A stretch of DNA of 64,000 nucleotides from an archaeon. Lineage in GTDB: Archaea; Iainarchaeota; Iainarchaeia; Iainarchaeales; DTGL01. Each line of letters starts with the position of its first letter. Position 1 is the first letter of the stretch. Below the pieces are notes generated by a model that did no database searches, was not told where the DNA came from, and worked only from the letters and a program-made list of their open reading frames with translations. The DNA is taken from the NCBI GenBank assembly GCA_029258755.1, contig JAPDKC010000009.1:46967-110966 (forward strand). The letters run 5' to 3'. Positions 8,257 through 49,664 of this stretch are shown one piece after another. A program made the translations under genes and the position numbers.

Positions 8257-8443
8257 CGAAAGCGGTTTTTCCAGCTTTTTTGAGAGTAAACGAGAAAGTG
8301 CTTTGCTTTGGTGGTTCGGATATACTCAAAGCAACCGAACTCTGCGCGTATGGACCCTTCAGAATCCGAACTCAGGAATTCGGTTTTCGCTACGCCGTTT
8401 TCATCGGTTAGCGCTTTTATTCTCTGCCTGCCGTTGAAGAAAA

Positions 8444-9646
8444 CTATTTCCTTATTTGCAAGGGTTTTCCGTTTGAGGTGAGAACAGCGGTTGCAAGTAC
8501 ATAATCGTTCTCTGAAAAGCTGCCGGAATTGAGAGAAAGTGAGAGCTCTGCGGGCTTTGCTTCAATTAAACACTTATTGCTCAGATCGAACTCTTCGAAT
8601 GCGGAATAAAGCTTCATTTTGCAGGCAGGGGCTTTCGCAAAGCCAAGCTTAATGAGCTTTCTTTTTGGGCTGAGATTGGAATTAAGATCTATTAAGCCGC
8701 GCGCTGATTTTCCAAGAGCGCTTTTGCGGACCACGAAAAGAACACCGTAAGGCTTGAGTGTTGAAGCAATGTCGAAGTTTTCTTCGGAAAAGGAAAAGCT
8801 GTTCTTGCCAAAAGAAACTGTGAACTCATTTACCGGCATGGTTGATTCAATCATGTAGCGGGCTTCACTTATGCCATCTTTGAGCTCAACAGCGCTCGCG
8901 AGATTGAAGTCAAAGAAATAAGCCTTTGCTCTGAACTCATCGCTCAGCTTTAAGGAATCTGTTCGCTCTGTTGTTTTGTAGTAGTCGCATGAGGTCCAGC
9001 AGTAGATTGTGCATACCTCATTGCAGAACTGCGCGCAATGCGACTGCTTTCGAAAATGCTTTTCAATGAGCTTTGCTTTTATGAACAGCTCTGCTGAAAA
9101 ATTCAGATCTTTTTCTTTGCCTGCCGAGTAGCTTGAAACTTTTTGCGAGCCTATTTTTGAGCCATTGAGGAAAACGCTAAGATTGTCTGCAAGCACTTTG
9201 TAGGAGCGCTCTGTTTTGCAGTCGTGCTCTGCTGTGTCTTTTGGCAATACAATTTCAAAATTGCCTGCCACTAGCACCCTGCCGCTTGGCTCAGCATACC
9301 ATTGGTTGGAATCGAGATCAAAGAAAGATCTATCAATAGCAATTATCTTCAGCCAAGCGTTTTTTATTATGCCTGAGCTGTGCTGCTGCAAGTTAGCGGG
9401 CGCTTCGCTGAAATTGAGCGAGTTGTTCCAATTCCAAATGAAAGCATAATCCGGCAGTACGCCCTGCTTGCTTAGAAGGTTGAGATACAGATCCTCTTTT
9501 TGCTCAACGCTGAGGGATTCATCTGCAAGGATGTTCTCGCACTCTGACTTTTTCCAGCCGTTGAGATGATCGCAGTTGGCTGGCAGTATTGCTGAGTAAG
9601 CCGAGGTAATCAACAGTATGCAAAACAAAGCAACAAAGCCTTTCAT
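8444..9646 (-). CDS. Secreted cysteine-rich protein (signal peptide), hypothetical
   Basis: N-terminal signal MKGFVALFCILLITSAYSA and multiple Cys clusters (CDHLNGWKKSEC; HCAQFCNEVCTIYCWTSCDYY). No recognised domain. Confidence 0.45.
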   Translation of the reverse strand: MKGFVALFCILLITSAYSAILPANCDHLNGWKKSECENILADESLSVEQKEDLYLNLLSKQGVLPDYAFIWNWNNSLNFSEAPANLQQHSSGIIKNAWLKIIAIDRSFFDLDSNQWYAEPSGRVLVAGNFEIVLPKDTAEHDCKTERSYKVLADNLSVFLNGSKIGSQKVSSYSAGKEKDLNFSAELFIKAKLIEKHFRKQSHCAQFCNEVCTIYCWTSCDYYKTTERTDSLKLSDEFRAKAYFFDFNLASAVELKDGISEARYMIESTMPVNEFTVSFGKNSFSFSEENFDIASTLKPYGVLFVVRKSALGKSARGLIDLNSNLSPKRKLIKLGFAKAPACKMKLYSAFEEFDLSNKCLIEAKPAELSLSLNSGSFSENDYVLATAVLTSNGKPLQIRK

Positions 9647-9655
9647 GGAATCTCC

Positions 9656-9979
9656 TTAAGCTGCTGTTAAGAAGTTAACCAAGTATGGAGCGATCCAGAT
9701 TATGAGCAGGCCCATTACTGCATAAGAAAGCATCTGCTTGGCGCTTTCTCTTGCCTGTATGTTCTCGCCGGAAGCCATGAAGCGGAAGCCTGCAAATGTA
9801 ATAACCAAGACAGCAACAATGGAAATTAGTGTTTGCACAACCGTGTATATGCGCTCCAATGGCTCCTTTATTTTTTGCAGGTTCTCATCGCTGGTATCAG
9901 CTGCGTGCACAAAAGGCGCAGCTGAAAGCATAAAGAAAATCAAAGTCGGGACCAAAAGAGGAATTAAAGCTTCTTTCAT
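9656..9979 (-). CDS. VirB2/TrbC-like (CedA1-like) small 2-TM pilin-like protein
   Basis: 107 aa: a signal-like N-terminus ending AAPFVHA, then two hydrophobic helices separated by a short polar loop. An SD-like GGAGGTG lies 5 nt upstream of the ATG. Confidence 0.4.
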   Translation of the reverse strand: MKEALIPLLVPTLIFFMLSAAPFVHAADTSDENLQKIKEPLERIYTVVQTLISIVAVLVITFAGFRFMASGENIQARESAKQMLSYAVMGLLIIWIAPYLVNFLTAA

Positions 9980-17955: not shown

Positions 17956-18096
17956 AAAAAGCCAACGCCCAGGCCGGGATTCGAACCCGGATCGCAGCCT
18001 TCCTGCAATTTGCTGAATATTAGCAGCGGGTTGCTGGGGATAATAAGGACCCGCTGGAGGTCCTTATTTCGACAGGGCTGCATCCTAACCCTTAGA
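17956..18096 (-). tRNA. tRNA-Asp(GTC) with a 69-nt intron in the anticodon loop
   Basis: Minus-strand read: acceptor GCCCAGG/CCTGGGC, T-arm CCGGGTTCGAATCCCGG, anticodon stem CAGCC/GGCTG with loop CT-GTC-G...A. The intron forms strong hairpins (AATAAGGACC/GGTCCTTATT). No CCA is encoded. Confidence 0.6.
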
Positions 18097-18156
18097 CTAC
18101 CTGGGCACAGCTTAATAAATTATAAGTTAGGTGCAAGGTTTAAAAAATAATTACTT

Positions 18157-43787: not shown

Positions 43788-44190
43788 TTATAATTTCTGT
43801 AAAAATTCCTTCGCAGTTATAATTGGAATTCCTCTAAATTTCTTCAACTTCAGCAGATGCTTATCTCCAGTTATGATAAACTCTGCGCCAGCGGCTATTG
43901 CACATTCTAAAACCTTGTTATCTGCTGGGTCATCTTTAATTATTGTAATTTTTTTCTTTAGGCACAACAACGCGGGTAATTAAACACCAATCTAGTAGAG
44001 CGTTCTCAATCTCCTCTTTTCCAATTTTATTTTGGAATTTTCGCTCAAGAACGAGTTTTAATTCCTTTAATATTTCCATACTTGTATATGCTACAATTTT
44101 TCCCTCTAAAATGTGTCTTAACAACCTGTATTCATTCCCTCTCCAGAACATTGCAGAGATCATAACATTGGTGTCTAAAACGACCTTCAT
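43788..44190 (-). pseudogene. vapC: VapC-like PIN toxin, interrupted by a frameshift
   Basis: N-terminal part MKVVLDTNVMISA (43936..44190) and C-terminal part ...EFIITGDKHLL (43788..43970) are in different frames. They overlap at a T7/A7 homopolymer. Confidence 0.6.
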
Positions 44191-44194
44191 TACA

Positions 44195-44449
44195 TCACTC
44201 TGCTCGAATTTCTGCTATCGCTTTTTCCACATCCTTCCTCGTGAGCCCTGCCTTCTTTACTTTCTTCCTTATTTTAGCAAAATCGGCAAGAATTTTTTCT
44301 TTACTCAATTTTCTCAAAACGATTGTTTCCCTATCAAGAGCCACAACTGTAAAAATACTATCTTCATTTACATTTAGAAACTCGCGTATCCGCTTGGGAA
44401 TCACCACCTGGCCGCGAGTACTCATTTTTGTAGTTTCCACAACCACCAT
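44195..44449 (-). CDS. vapB: AbrB/SpoVT-family antitoxin (VapB-like)
   Basis: MSTRGQVVIPKRIREFL is the SpoVT/AbrB swapped-hairpin signature. It sits 5 nt upstream of vapC. Confidence 0.7.
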   Translation of the reverse strand: MVVVETTKMSTRGQVVIPKRIREFLNVNEDSIFTVVALDRETIVLRKLSKEKILADFAKIRKKVKKAGLTRKDVEKAIAEIRAE

Positions 44450-46223: not shown

Positions 46224-47750
46224 ATGCACGCTATAGCTGTTTTAGATTTTGGGGGCCAGTACGCACATCTCATCGCAAGGAAGATTAGGGAGCTTGGCGT
46301 TTATTCCTTTGTTATAGAAGGGGATTGTAAAAAAGAAAAGCTTGCCGAAATACAAGGGCTCAAAGGGATTGTTCTTTCTGGCGGTCCAGCTTCCGCTAGC
46401 GACAAAAATGCCCCTAAAATCGATAGGGAAATACTAAAATTGCATGTGCCGATTCTTGGCATCTGCTATGGCCACCAATTGTTAGCGAAGCTTTCTGGCG
46501 GAAAGGTAGCTAAAGGGAAAAATGCCGAATATGGGAAAACAGAGCTTAAAGTTCTAAATAAAAGCTTGTTGCTAGCTGGACTTAAAGAAAGAGAGATTGT
46601 TTGGATGAACCATAGAGATACTGTTGTAAAGCTGCCTTCAAGCTTCAATATATTGGCATCAACACAAAACTGCAAAATTGCAGCTTTCGAAAACAGAGAA
46701 AAAGGATTATATGGCTTGCAATTCCATCCGGAGGTAAGCCATACCATCAAAGGTAAAAGGATATTAGCAAACTTCGTTTTCAATATTTGTAAGGCGGAAC
46801 CATCTTACAAAGAAAAGGATATAATAAATAAAATTGTAGAAGAAGCAAAGCAAACAATAGGAAACAAAAAAGCCATAATTGGCTTATCCTCTGGTATAGA
46901 TTCATCCACAGCAGCAATGCTTGTACACAAAGCTATTGGAAAAAATTTGCTTGCTGTTTATATTGACACCGGTCTAATGCGCTATCGCGAAACAGAGCTT
47001 GTGAAAAGAGTGTTTAGCAAGCTTGGGCTAAATTTGCGTATCGTGAACGCAAAAAAACGATTCTTCGCTGCGTTAAAAAATGTGAAAAATCCGGAAAGAA
47101 AAAGGCACATTATAGGAAAGCTTTTCATTAAGATATTTGAGGAAATCGCCAAAAAAGAAAAAGCCGAATTTTTGGTACAAGGCACTATATATTCCGACCG
47201 CATAGAGAGTGGCATAACAAAGTATTCAGCAAGGATAAAGAGCCATCATAACGTTGCTGCTTTACCAAAGCGCATGCGCTTAAAGCTTTATGAACCGTTA
47301 AGAAATCTGTACAAAGATGAGGTAAGGAGGATAGCAAAAAAGCTTGGCCTACCTAAAGAGCTTATAAAAAGGCATGTTTTTCCCGGTCCTGGTTTAGCTA
47401 TTCGTGTAGCTGGTGAAGTAACACCGAAAAAAGTAGCCATAGTGAGAAAAGCAAGCTATATAGTAGAGGAAGAACTCAAAAAAGCAAAGCTTTATGATAA
47501 GGTCTGGATGGGCTTCGCGATTCTTTTGCCCGTTAAAAGCGTTGGTATCCAAGGAGACGCAAGAACTTATAAGTATGCGGTTGTAGTAAGGATTGTTTGC
47601 TCTGAAGATGCTATGACTGCAAACTTCGCCAAGCTTCCTTTCAGCGTGCTAGAAAGAATCTCTACTAGAATTACCAATGAGATAGCTGAAGTGAATCGCG
47701 TACTTTATGATATCACAAATAAGCCGCCAGCTACGATGGAATGGGAATAG
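46224..47750 (+). CDS. guaA: GMP synthase (glutamine-hydrolysing), fused GATase and ATP-PPase domains
   Basis: GICYGHQ (GATase Cys), SGGIDSS (PP-loop) and a C-terminal dimerisation domain. Confidence 0.9.
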   Translation: MHAIAVLDFGGQYAHLIARKIRELGVYSFVIEGDCKKEKLAEIQGLKGIVLSGGPASASDKNAPKIDREILKLHVPILGICYGHQLLAKLSGGKVAKGKNAEYGKTELKVLNKSLLLAGLKEREIVWMNHRDTVVKLPSSFNILASTQNCKIAAFENREKGLYGLQFHPEVSHTIKGKRILANFVFNICKAEPSYKEKDIINKIVEEAKQTIGNKKAIIGLSSGIDSSTAAMLVHKAIGKNLLAVYIDTGLMRYRETELVKRVFSKLGLNLRIVNAKKRFFAALKNVKNPERKRHIIGKLFIKIFEEIAKKEKAEFLVQGTIYSDRIESGITKYSARIKSHHNVAALPKRMRLKLYEPLRNLYKDEVRRIAKKLGLPKELIKRHVFPGPGLAIRVAGEVTPKKVAIVRKASYIVEEELKKAKLYDKVWMGFAILLPVKSVGIQGDARTYKYAVVVRIVCSEDAMTANFAKLPFSVLERISTRITNEIAEVNRVLYDITNKPPATMEWE

Positions 47751-47777
47751 CATTTCTTTTACAAGCTTTTCGAAAAA

Positions 47778-47835
47778 TTTGTAACTAAAATAGTTACAAA
47801 TATTTTTTAAATTTTTTGTAACTAAAATAGTTACA
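47778..47835 (+). promoter_or_regulatory. Two direct copies of a 21-nt element, each an 8-3-8 palindrome (TGTAACTA-aaa-TAGTTACA): putative AbiEi operator
   Basis: TTTGTAACTAAAATAGTTACA sits at 47778-47798 and again at 47815-47835. The second copy overlaps the ATG of the downstream gene. Confidence 0.6.
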
Positions 47836-48464
47836 TGAATAAAAAGTTGAAAATATATGCCTACTTGTGGAAATTGTTTGCAGATGAAGTATTTTCAATA
47901 AGAGAGTTTGAACAGGCATTCTATGCCCCAAATGCGAGAAAAACATTATGTGATTTGTGTAAAGAAGGGTTTGTTATAAGGGTAGGCAGAGGACATTACA
48001 AAGCGGCAAAACCTGTTGAGTTTTTAAACAATTTAATCTGCCAAAAAAACCCATACGATTTGCCAAACAAAAGCAATTTACCATATGCATTTGCTGATAA
48101 GGATGCTGTTGTTATCTGGAGCAATGGCTACTACTGGACAGGTTTTAAAGCAGGTTTTTTGCCAATTATTATTGAGGTAAGGCAAAGGGATTTGAAAAAA
48201 TGGCAGGAATTTTTTAAGAAAAATCGTGCTGAATATTTTGTTGAGGGTGAAAAACCTAAGGAAACATTTGTTGGCACTGTGTATATTTTAAGGCCTGTAA
48301 AAGAGGTTGAAGCGGAAAAAAGAGGGGCTTATTCAGTAATGCCCTTGAAAAAAACTATCGAATTCTGCAAAAGAAACAAGTACTTATTTGAACCAGTGTT
48401 AGAATATTTAAGCAAGAAGTATCGCATGCGTTTAGCAAAGCAATATAGCTATATTAATAGGTGA
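47835..48464 (+). CDS. abiEi: AbiEi-like antitoxin (wHTH transcriptional regulator) of a type IV TA system
   Basis: N-terminal wHTH with RVGRGHY, a 4-nt overlap with the downstream nucleotidyltransferase, and the operator repeats upstream. Confidence 0.5.
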   Translation: MNKKLKIYAYLWKLFADEVFSIREFEQAFYAPNARKTLCDLCKEGFVIRVGRGHYKAAKPVEFLNNLICQKNPYDLPNKSNLPYAFADKDAVVIWSNGYYWTGFKAGFLPIIIEVRQRDLKKWQEFFKKNRAEYFVEGEKPKETFVGTVYILRPVKEVEAEKRGAYSVMPLKKTIEFCKRNKYLFEPVLEYLSKKYRMRLAKQYSYINR

Positions 48465-49165
48465 TGCGTTTGTTTCTGGGGCTTTTGAAAAGAGAAAAAG
48501 AAATAATGAAGCTTTTGAAAGAGATTGTAAAAAGAAAAAGTTTTGTTGTAATTGGTGGCTATGCGGTAAATGCATTCACCCAGCCAAGATTTTCTCTTGA
48601 TCTGGATATCGTTGTCGATAAAGAAGATTCTGCATTTTTTCGAAAGTTTTTGAGAGAGAAGGGTTTTTCAAAAGTAGCGGAGTTTAAGGAACTTCCTTAT
48701 AAAGGAACTTTTGAAAGATTTGAGAAAAAGCTGGAAACTGGCAGCATTTCGGTAGATTTGCTTATCGGAGAGGTAGCAAGCAGGCAAACCGGAGCGAGCT
48801 ATTCTTACGAATATTTGAAAAAATACAGCAGGGTGAGAAACATTATAGGCATGTCTGAACGTGTCAGAGCGCGCGTAGCTGATGCAGAGTTGCTGATCGC
48901 ATTAAAGATAAACTCTGCTAGAAATGTGGATATAAGAGATGTATTTATGTTAGCAGGTACGAAGGTGCGACTGGAGATAATAAAAAAACATTTGGAAAAA
49001 GTGAATAAGAAAAAGCTGAAAGAGAATCTGAAGAAAATAAAAAAGGCAATTAACGAAAAGCGATTCAGAGATTCTTTGCAAGGATGCTTTGGCATTGTTG
49101 ATGATAAAACATTTGAAAGAAACAGGAAAAAGCTCATGAGAATTCTAAACGCGCTCTCCACTTAA
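48461..49165 (+). CDS. abiEii: AbiEii-like nucleotidyltransferase toxin
   Basis: VIGGYAVNAFTQPRFSLDLDIVV matches the AbiEii/DUF1814 motif (GG.A......R.S.DlD). Confidence 0.55.
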   Translation: MMRLFLGLLKREKEIMKLLKEIVKRKSFVVIGGYAVNAFTQPRFSLDLDIVVDKEDSAFFRKFLREKGFSKVAEFKELPYKGTFERFEKKLETGSISVDLLIGEVASRQTGASYSYEYLKKYSRVRNIIGMSERVRARVADAELLIALKINSARNVDIRDVFMLAGTKVRLEIIKKHLEKVNKKKLKENLKKIKKAINEKRFRDSLQGCFGIVDDKTFERNRKKLMRILNALST

Positions 49166-49166
49166 A

Positions 49167-49664
49167 CTATTTTCCTACACTGGACCAAGGATAAACAACC
49201 CAGCCGTCAGCTATTTCAGCATAATAATCGGGCTTAAACTTCGACCATGGTTTATAATGCACTGTCAAAAAGCGAGCTTCCTTTGGCTTAAGCGATTCTA
49301 TGTACTTTTTAACAGCTAAGCCGGTAGCACCGCTATCCGTCACTTCATCCACAACAAGCACGCGCTTACCTTCTATACTTTTATCCAATTTCTGCACAAT
49401 TTTGGGCTTTGCATTCTTTTTCATATCCGCTTTAGCAACATCATCTTTATAGTATTCAACTTTTATCACATACAATTCGTTGTTCTTTAGTGCATGTGAA
49501 ATTATTTGTGCAGGCACTAAGCCGCCCCTACTAACAGCAACAATAACATCCGGCTCAAAGCGATCTTTTTGCAGTTGCTCAACAAGCTTTTTGCAAAGCT
49601 TATCTAGCTTTTCCCAAGAAATAAATAGCTTTTTTTCTAAATTTTGCTTAGCTATTCGAGCCAT
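49167..49664 (-). CDS. Purine phosphoribosyltransferase (hpt/gpt-like)
   Basis: PRPP-binding motif RVLVVDEVTDSGATG. Confidence 0.75.
   Translation of the reverse strand: MARIAKQNLEKKLFISWEKLDKLCKKLVEQLQKDRFEPDVIVAVSRGGLVPAQIISHALKNNELYVIKVEYYKDDVAKADMKKNAKPKIVQKLDKSIEGKRVLVVDEVTDSGATGLAVKKYIESLKPKEARFLTVHYKPWSKFKPDYYAEIADGWVVYPWSSVGK

Follow-up and report, generated by a model that had tools for sequence, protein, structure and literature searches.

The gene pair ORF1–ORF2 probably constitutes a bicistronic AbiE/DUF1814-type (MenAT-like) toxin–antitoxin module of an archaeon, autoregulated through a promoter in which a TATA box, an operator, and a leaderless ATG follow one another. The module represents a known system in a divergent archaeal form and is unsurprising. 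It was analyzed within a DNA stretch of 64 kb, the whole of which is referred to as the window. The evidence consists of the sequence features of the two genes, the family membership of ORF2, the predicted fold of ORF1, the pairing of the genes across genomes, and the geometry of TATA box, operator, and ATG. Coordinates are collected in Table 1.

Table 1. Features of the module and its upstream region (positions in the window)
Feature	Coordinates	Strand	Remarks
Distal operator (candidate)	47778..47800	.	21-mer 47778-47798; core palindrome TGTAACTAAAATAGTTACA 47780-47798, -55..-37 from ATG
Candidate archaeal TATA box TTTAAATT	47806..47813	+	-29..-22 from A of ATG; 7/8 positions of TTTAWATA
Proximal operator (candidate)	47815..47835	.	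21-mer 47815-47835; core palindrome 47817-47835, -18..+1
ORF1, 209 aa	47835..48464	+	AbiEi-like, predicted repressor and antitoxin; winged helix ~1-58, alpha/beta C-terminal domain ~84-195
ORF2, 234 aa from GTG	48461..49165	+	DUF1814/AbiEii-family nucleotidyltransferase, predicted toxin; Pfam AbiEii

The gene pair, its families, and its host

Of the HMM support anticipated in the original prediction, that for ORF2 was obtained directly and that for ORF1 through its relatives. ORF2 was matched by Pfam AbiEii (PF08843) over model positions 10-229 of 238 with 25.5 bits at a cut-off of 22.5, and the same model matched 26 of 27 ORF2 relatives (best E 2.8e-8). The score of ORF2 itself lies above the cut-off by a margin of 3 bits. 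ORF1 was without a match in Pfam (E ≤ 1) and NCBIfam, but Pfam AbiEi_4 (PF13338) matched 9 of its 28 relatives (best E 1.8e-6). The AbiEi models of PADLOC gave a weak match to the N-terminus of ORF1 (residues 7-58, E 4e-5), and across the ORF1 family nearly all PADLOC matches were to AbiEi models. Searching the sequences in the PDB with a profile of the ORF1 family yielded generic winged helices only, at E values of 0.058 or higher.

The ATG at 47835 is the sole usable start of ORF1; it is preceded at a distance of 9 nt by an in-frame stop, and relatives have kept the N-terminus (MNK+LKIYAYLW). The RVGRGHY motif, by which a winged helix–turn–helix protein had been recognized, was located in the wing (residues 49-55). 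The structure of ORF1 was predicted by AlphaFold2 from 26 sequences, resulting in a confident model in which a winged helix is combined, as it is in AbiEi, with a C-terminal domain resembling nucleotidyltransferases. When the full-length model was searched with Foldseek, AbiEi (6Y8Q) was ranked second at a non-significant level (E 5.8e-3, TM ~0.25); the low TM-score may partly reflect domain orientation. As described by Beck et al. (PMC7319586), the structural neighbors of the AbiEi crystal structure are of the same kind as those of ORF1, namely Rv2827c, then antibiotic adenylyltransferases, then 5UVD. Judged by the model, ORF1 appears to share the architecture and the fold class of AbiEi, and the C-terminal domains of the two proteins are likely homologous.

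Both parts of the AbiEii motif that had been named for the second gene are present in ORF2, GGYA at residues 32-35 and RFSLDLDIVV at residues 43-52 (numbered from the GTG). Motifs I and II read I31-G32-G33, 13 residues, and D47-L-D49, with R43 four residues before the first Asp. In the family alignment G32, G33, R43, S45, D47, D49, K149, R154, D157, R159, and D160 are invariant. The R-x-S-x-D-x-D of ORF2 reproduces R63-x-T65-x-D67-x-D69 of AbiEii, of which the Arg and both Asp are required for toxicity (PMC3985639), while T65 is phosphorylated when the antitoxin is present, with MenT1 T39 and MenT3 S78 as equivalents (10.64898/2026.01.19.700257). Following a profile search with the ORF2 family, the MenT1 structure 8AN4 was found (E 2e-7), GGYA...PRFSxDxD being placed over GGFA...PRFTRDVD; S45, invariant in 27 sequences, is thereby aligned with the Thr of PRFTRDVD. 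Motifs III and IV were compared with the published patterns (III: Lys in a hydrophobic context, then Arg; IV: +DxxD). In ORF2 they are approximate, consisting of ALKINSARNVDIRD with K-x4-R spacing and an acidic D-x-R-D unlike the published patterns.

ORF1 and ORF2 overlap by 4 nt, as had been predicted (GTGA, 48461-48464). An in-frame ATG at 48464 would cut the overlap to 1 nt; the longer overlap is favored because an 85%-identical orthologue has GTG alone in frame there. To survey the pairing, the nucleotidyltransferase alignment was scanned against one genome per species, giving 233 relatives, and 80 of these loci were retrieved. In nearly all 80, the gene immediately upstream, in the same orientation, encodes an ORF1 homologue. 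The start of the second gene overlaps ORF1 in 50 of 59 related loci, 20 and 4 nt being the commonest overlaps. Haloarchaeal ORF1 homologues can be solitary.

An exhaustive profile search with ORF1 gave 98 clusters (50% identity), and 392 proteins were retrieved from an indexed protein database with a profile of the ORF1 family. A tiny ORF1 family of 3 clusters, suggested by a word-indexed search, was rejected as an artefact of the word index, the exhaustive profile and neighbor scans having revealed a broad family. The closest relatives of the module occur in Woesearchaeota, Nanoarchaeota, Micrarchaeota, and other archaea. Viral contigs scanned with the nucleotidyltransferase profile contained no relative, and a metagenome scan with ORF1 gave a single contig, one already covered by the analysis.

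In a near-identical strain, the contig also carries genes for TFIIB and L35Ae, which mark the host as archaeal. Rfam returned a tRNA of 141 nt (17966-18106), a length that implies an intron. The archaeal host probably belongs to a DPANN-type lineage. The module is flanked by guaA and a phosphoribosyltransferase gene, both housekeeping, and the composition profile at the module displayed no anomaly and no island signature. Given these neighbors, the normal composition, and the lack of relatives on the viral contigs scanned, a role in defense or in a mobile element is without support here.

Palindromes and promoter layout upstream of ORF1

The exact 21-mer TTTGTAACTAAAATAGTTACA occurs twice with a 37-nt period upstream of ORF1, and each copy contains the 8-3-8 inverted repeat that had been described, a perfect palindrome of the form TGTAACTA-AAA-TAGTTACA. 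No match to TTTGTAACTAAAATAGTTACA was obtained in any of 100 shuffles of the sequence, and none is expected by chance. In the first copy the palindrome extends to 10-3-10 (47778-47800). The second copy had been said to cover the ATG (47835-47837); it does overlap the codon, but by one base only, the A at 47835.

As the host is archaeal, the promoter is to be read by TATA/BRE logic and not as −35/−10 elements, and the two copies of the 21-mer then flank the TATA box. The distal operator is situated just upstream of the box, in the BRE region. The gap between TATA box and start codon is filled by the proximal operator, which thereby lies over the presumed start of transcription. A scan of the intergenic region for sigma-70 promoters and intrinsic terminators, which uses a bacterial model for an archaeal host, returned nothing.

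Related upstream regions were examined in 68 non-redundant loci (346 kb). Following alignment at the ORF1 start, a common order was seen: a TATA box, a few bases, and a 19-bp palindrome ending at the ATG. The usual forms of the operator are AGTTACC-TAWTA-GGTAACT and AATTACC-ATAAT-GGTAATT. The general pattern RTWAC-N7-GTWAY occurs 79 times in the 346 kb, 71 of these within −150..+40 of an ORF1 start, and at least one copy is present upstream of ORF1 in 65 of the 68 loci. An in-frame start codon follows the core after 0-4 nt in 58 loci (exactly 1 nt in 46). Similarly, the best TTTAWATA-like 8-mer starts at −32..−29 in 53 of 60 related loci; a score of at least 7/8 was reached in 45 of the 60, versus ~7% of random windows.

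An archaeal TATA box centered near −26, that is about 26-27 nt upstream, would make the start codon the point where transcription begins. A box starting near −30, together with a gap filled by the palindrome, therefore predicts a leaderless transcript with repression at the start site. The leaderless transcript proposed in the original prediction is consistent with the position of the TATA-like box both in the window and in the relatives. On the same sequence evidence, the order TATA box, operator, and leaderless ATG appears to be common to about 60 related archaeal loci. For the genome at large, leaderlessness is unsupported, since a window-wide histogram of TATA positions gave a weak peak at −32..−29 (6 of 51 genes) and SD-like 4-mers precede 18 of the 51 genes.

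The duplication is less general. Two operators flanking the TATA box were found in 6 of the 68 loci, belonging to different subclades, with spacings of 27-45 bp, and in two loci (L045 and L088) the palindrome lies solely upstream of the TATA box. The proximal copy is the conserved one, and the duplication a minority feature of the family. Most relatives manage with a single operator. The distal operator is retained in the 85%- and 55%-identical orthologues, the half-sites being kept while center and spacing are altered. A half-site that stays constant while the center varies is the pattern expected of a protein-binding site, and since the half-site centers are ~12 bp apart, one dimer per palindrome is probable. 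The 37-bp spacing of the two operators corresponds to ~3.5 helical turns. Such a phase, and the fact that related loci vary in spacing from 27 to 45 bp, speak against the two sites being held in a fixed cooperative arrangement.

In the window lineage the half-site sits where it does elsewhere in the family (+4 to +8 from the palindrome center), with the middle base swapped, giving GTAAC and not GTTAC; the swap is symmetric within each palindrome and present in each of the two copies. The 55%-identical relative (locus L001) has kept both GTAAC...GTTAC palindromes, whereas the central 7 nt, the sequence between the operators, and the spacing (45 bp) are changed. Residues 33-36 in the predicted recognition helix are NARK in the three proteins of the GTAAC class. 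The corresponding motif is Q[PA][TSA]K in the ATTAC class and SMKKK or PQ[AG]KK in the GTTAC classes. This apparent co-variation of half-site and recognition helix is a lead, all three GTAAC proteins being from one clade.

A joint reading of these observations is put forward tentatively, as somewhat more doubtful than not. The module would belong to an archaea-specific AbiE/MenAT-like clade, the members of which would mostly be annotated as hypothetical proteins and score weakly with the models of Pfam and PADLOC. The clade would have a fixed promoter design of TATA box, 19-bp dimer-type palindrome, and leaderless ATG. In the window lineage, the symmetric swap from GTTAC to GTAAC would have re-programmed operator recognition, and in a few lineages a second operator would add exclusion of TFB/TBP to exclusion of RNA polymerase.

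Proposed mechanism and alternatives

The toxicity and target of ORF2, its neutralization, and DNA binding and repression by ORF1 are proposed as follows. By analogy with MenT and AbiEii, ORF2, a polymerase-beta-type nucleotidyltransferase, would stop translation through nucleotide addition to tRNA 3′ ends. ORF1 would neutralize ORF2 by binding it through the C-terminal nucleotidyltransferase-like domain, and might induce auto-phosphorylation of the invariant Ser45 in ORF2. The winged helix of ORF1 is expected to recognize the GTAAC-N7-GTTAC palindromes, with one ORF1 dimer probably occupying each. At the proximal operator, binding would block recruitment of RNA polymerase and initiation; at the distal operator, which abuts the BRE/TATA, it would hinder binding of TFB and TBP. 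Both operators together could provide tight negative autoregulation, and translation of the overlapping ORF1 and ORF2 is probably coupled.

Comparable modes of repression exist in archaea. With repressors that bind at the TATA box or downstream of it, such as MDR1, Phr, LrpA, and TrmB-type regulators, an operator between TATA box and start blocks the recruitment of RNA polymerase, and an archaeal operator over the BRE/TATA blocks binding of TFB and TBP. These repressors differ from ORF1 in belonging to unrelated families outside toxin–antitoxin modules; the likeness is in mechanism only.

The same genes could be read without a toxin, as a winged-helix regulator accompanied by a benign nucleotidyltransferase (for example an enzyme that modifies small molecules or antibiotics, or one involved in RNA maturation), with the palindromes serving as an ordinary autoregulated operator. 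We consider this unlikely. AbiEii is the best family for 26 of the 27 ORF2 relatives, the best solved relative is the MenT1 toxin, and motif II of ORF2 carries the AbiEii-specific arginine together with the phospho-acceptor Ser/Thr (PMC3985639). Toxin–antitoxin operons typically show such strict pairing and gene overlap, and the genomic context changes between close relatives, with guaA in the window and a tRNA-Ser gene in L001.

For the palindromes, a role at the level of RNA was weighed, in which the hairpins would terminate guaA or sequester the ORF1 start codon within a leader initiated further upstream. The region does fold as two strong hairpins (−17.6 kcal/mol, z −4.07), with T-runs after the first and with the A of the ATG taken into the second. 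The conserved TATA box at ~−30, however, puts the start at the ATG, so that the mRNA of the operon would not include the palindromes, and the element accompanies ORF1 whatever lies upstream. Moreover, the GTWAC half-site is kept across 65 loci while the center varies, no pairing is kept via compensatory changes, and the window lineage has altered both half-sites symmetrically, as expected of a dimeric protein site. Such a role is thus very improbable. Termination in archaea needs oligo-T runs only. T-runs at 47803-47808 and 47812-47817 flank the TATA box, and these could act as an oligo-T terminator for guaA.

Finally, the palindromes might be a dispersed genomic repeat, or the end of a mobile element, that came to lie beside the operon by chance; a widespread repeat unrelated to the operon had been named in the original prediction as the observation that would count against it. 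Nothing beyond the duplication itself points in this direction. The window holds no further copy of TTTGTAACTAAAATAGTTACA, even when up to 3 mismatches are allowed, and the exact core GTAAC-N7-GTTAC is limited to the same two sites. Outside the window, the element is tied to the operon in 65 of 68 related loci, and many archaeal phyla have kept its position relative to ORF1. The dispersed-repeat reading was rejected as next to impossible, the 21-mer and the looser core both being confined to two sites in the window.

Relation to known systems and significance

The toxin–antitoxin module proposed here resembles AbiEi–AbiEii of S. agalactiae (COG5340 and DUF1814/COG2253) in being bicistronic with the antitoxin gene first (PMC3985639, PMC7319586). 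Both antitoxins have an N-terminal winged helix and a C-terminal domain with adenylyltransferases as structural neighbors, by prediction in the case of ORF1, and both nucleotidyltransferases carry the pol-beta motifs hGG...R-x-T/S-x-D-x-D. In both systems, inverted repeats in the promoter lie over the transcription start, presumed in the window, with negative autoregulation established for S. agalactiae and predicted here. The differences are considerable. The sequence identity between the two pairs is very low, the Pfam AbiEi models miss ORF1, and motifs III and IV of ORF2 are approximate. The G-to-D spacing is 15 residues in AbiEii versus 13 in ORF2. The S. agalactiae promoter has −35/−10 elements and a ribosome-binding site, whereas an archaeal TATA box and no leader are predicted in the window. 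As for the type IV label of the original prediction, AbiE was reclassified from type IV to type VII in a 2026 preprint (10.64898/2026.01.19.700257).

The upstream repeats had also been likened to the two-inverted-repeat operator of AbiEi. The likeness holds for inverted repeats over the presumed start site but not for the geometry. In S. agalactiae, IR1 and IR2 are 23-bp arms, 3 bp apart (23-3-23), to each of which one monomer binds in a positively cooperative manner (PMC7319586); in the window, a short 19-bp palindrome with a 3-bp center and arms of 8 bp, or up to 10 bp with the extension (19-23 bp in all), occurs twice in direct orientation at a distance of 37 bp. A nearer analogue to the window layout is offered by Rv2827c–Rv2826c of M. 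tuberculosis, where two such pairs are arranged in tandem with the proximal pair over the start site (PMC7319586). That promoter nevertheless differs: its four repeats of 23 bp form two pairs with 13-bp gaps, and binding to them is negatively cooperative. The antitoxin Rv2827c is also larger than ORF1 (295 aa versus 209 aa), and the winged helix alone aligns structurally with ORF1. In later nomenclature, Rv2827c–Rv2826c is MenA4–MenT4. On the side of the toxin, MenT1 (Rv0078A, PDB 8AN4) is the closest solved relative of ORF2, sharing GG...PRF(T/S)xDxD including the phospho-acceptor position, with an alignment limited to the N-terminal half. MenA1, the antitoxin of MenT1, is small and is not known to carry a winged helix.

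To our knowledge, no archaeal example of AbiE/DUF1814 has been characterized to date; a literature search likewise returned no characterized archaeal AbiE example and no paper on archaeal AbiE promoter wiring. The presence of AbiE systems in archaea is already known from surveys (PMC12988326, PMC3985639), with AbiE/DUF1814 systems enriched in DPANN archaea (PMC12988326). Current antitoxin models recognize the clade described here poorly, and survey counts of archaeal AbiE may in consequence be too low.

The module is otherwise an ordinary toxin–antitoxin operon and leaves current understanding unchallenged. The family represents a clean and easily tested case, with a 19-bp operator set between TATA box and a presumably leaderless start codon in ~60 loci from many phyla; natural half-site variants and the minority with a second operator add to its testability. 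If the re-programmed specificity of the window lineage is real, cross-talk between co-resident or incoming modules could be prevented by the half-site change.

Predicted operator layouts and the 3′ end of the operon

Upstream of ORF1, the gene for the predicted antitoxin, the related loci L045 and L088 carry the palindrome GGTTACC-N5-GGTAACC, which adjoins the TATA box on its upstream side, with the start codon 31 nt beyond the palindrome core. Judged from these sequences, both loci have a putative distal-only operator layout. In L083 and L086 the usual operator position upstream of ORF1, past the TATA box and ahead of the ATG, holds a different palindrome, TTATCATTATAATGATAA, which would be a fourth operator class.

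At the other end of the module, a single nucleotide separates the stop codon of ORF2, encoding the predicted toxin, from that of the convergent phosphoribosyltransferase gene (both stops within window 49163-49169), leaving no room there for a separate terminator.

Coordinates of features in the window and in related loci
Feature	Locus	Position	Strand	Remark
Phosphoribosyltransferase gene	Window	49167-49664	-	Convergent with ORF2
tRNA gene	Window	17966-18106	-	141 nt; Rfam match, 48.9 bits
AbrB/MazE-like gene	Window	44195-44449	-	First of pair; contains STRGQVVIPK
PIN-domain gene	Window	43936-44190	-	Second of pair, after AbrB/MazE-like gene
ORF1 homologue, haloarchaeal	L091	3001-3675		Halobacterium salinarum CP038631
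Second ORF2-like nucleotidyltransferase frame	L066	999-1721		Partly degraded; just upstream of intact module
Second ORF2-like nucleotidyltransferase frame	L077	1000-1663		Partly degraded; just upstream of intact module

Other features of the window

Another toxin–antitoxin pair was found approximately 3.4 kb upstream of the module (window 43788-44449, minus strand). Its Pfam labels, PIN_3 and MazE, were taken from the near-identical strain L006. The C-terminal part of PIN apparently carries on in another frame (window 43788-43970), a possible sign of a frameshift. The tRNA gene matched by Rfam was absent from the ARAGORN output; its length implies an archaeal tRNA with an intron.

Gene copies and genomic context in relatives

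Many 224-aa homologues of ORF1, labelled ‘HTH domain-containing’ or ‘MarR family’, occur in haloarchaea. In the single haloarchaeal case inspected, L091, the homologue was without a nucleotidyltransferase partner and adjoined a ParA-like gene and transposases. The degraded ORF2-like frames preceding intact modules in L066 and L077 suggest tandem or decayed copies.

In L006, guaA (8391-9916; window 46224-47750) was called as two pieces of 70 and 434 aa, and an additional 256-aa gene lies between the LPG-synthase-like gene and guaA; both are strain-level differences adjoining the module. In the 55%-identical relative L001 (region 348-501), a tRNA-Ser(GCT) gene directly precedes the module, the putative distal operator beginning 2 nt past its 3′ end, whereas in the window this position is taken by guaA rather than a tRNA gene. 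tRNA genes are typical integration sites. These differing contexts suggest that the module is mobile.
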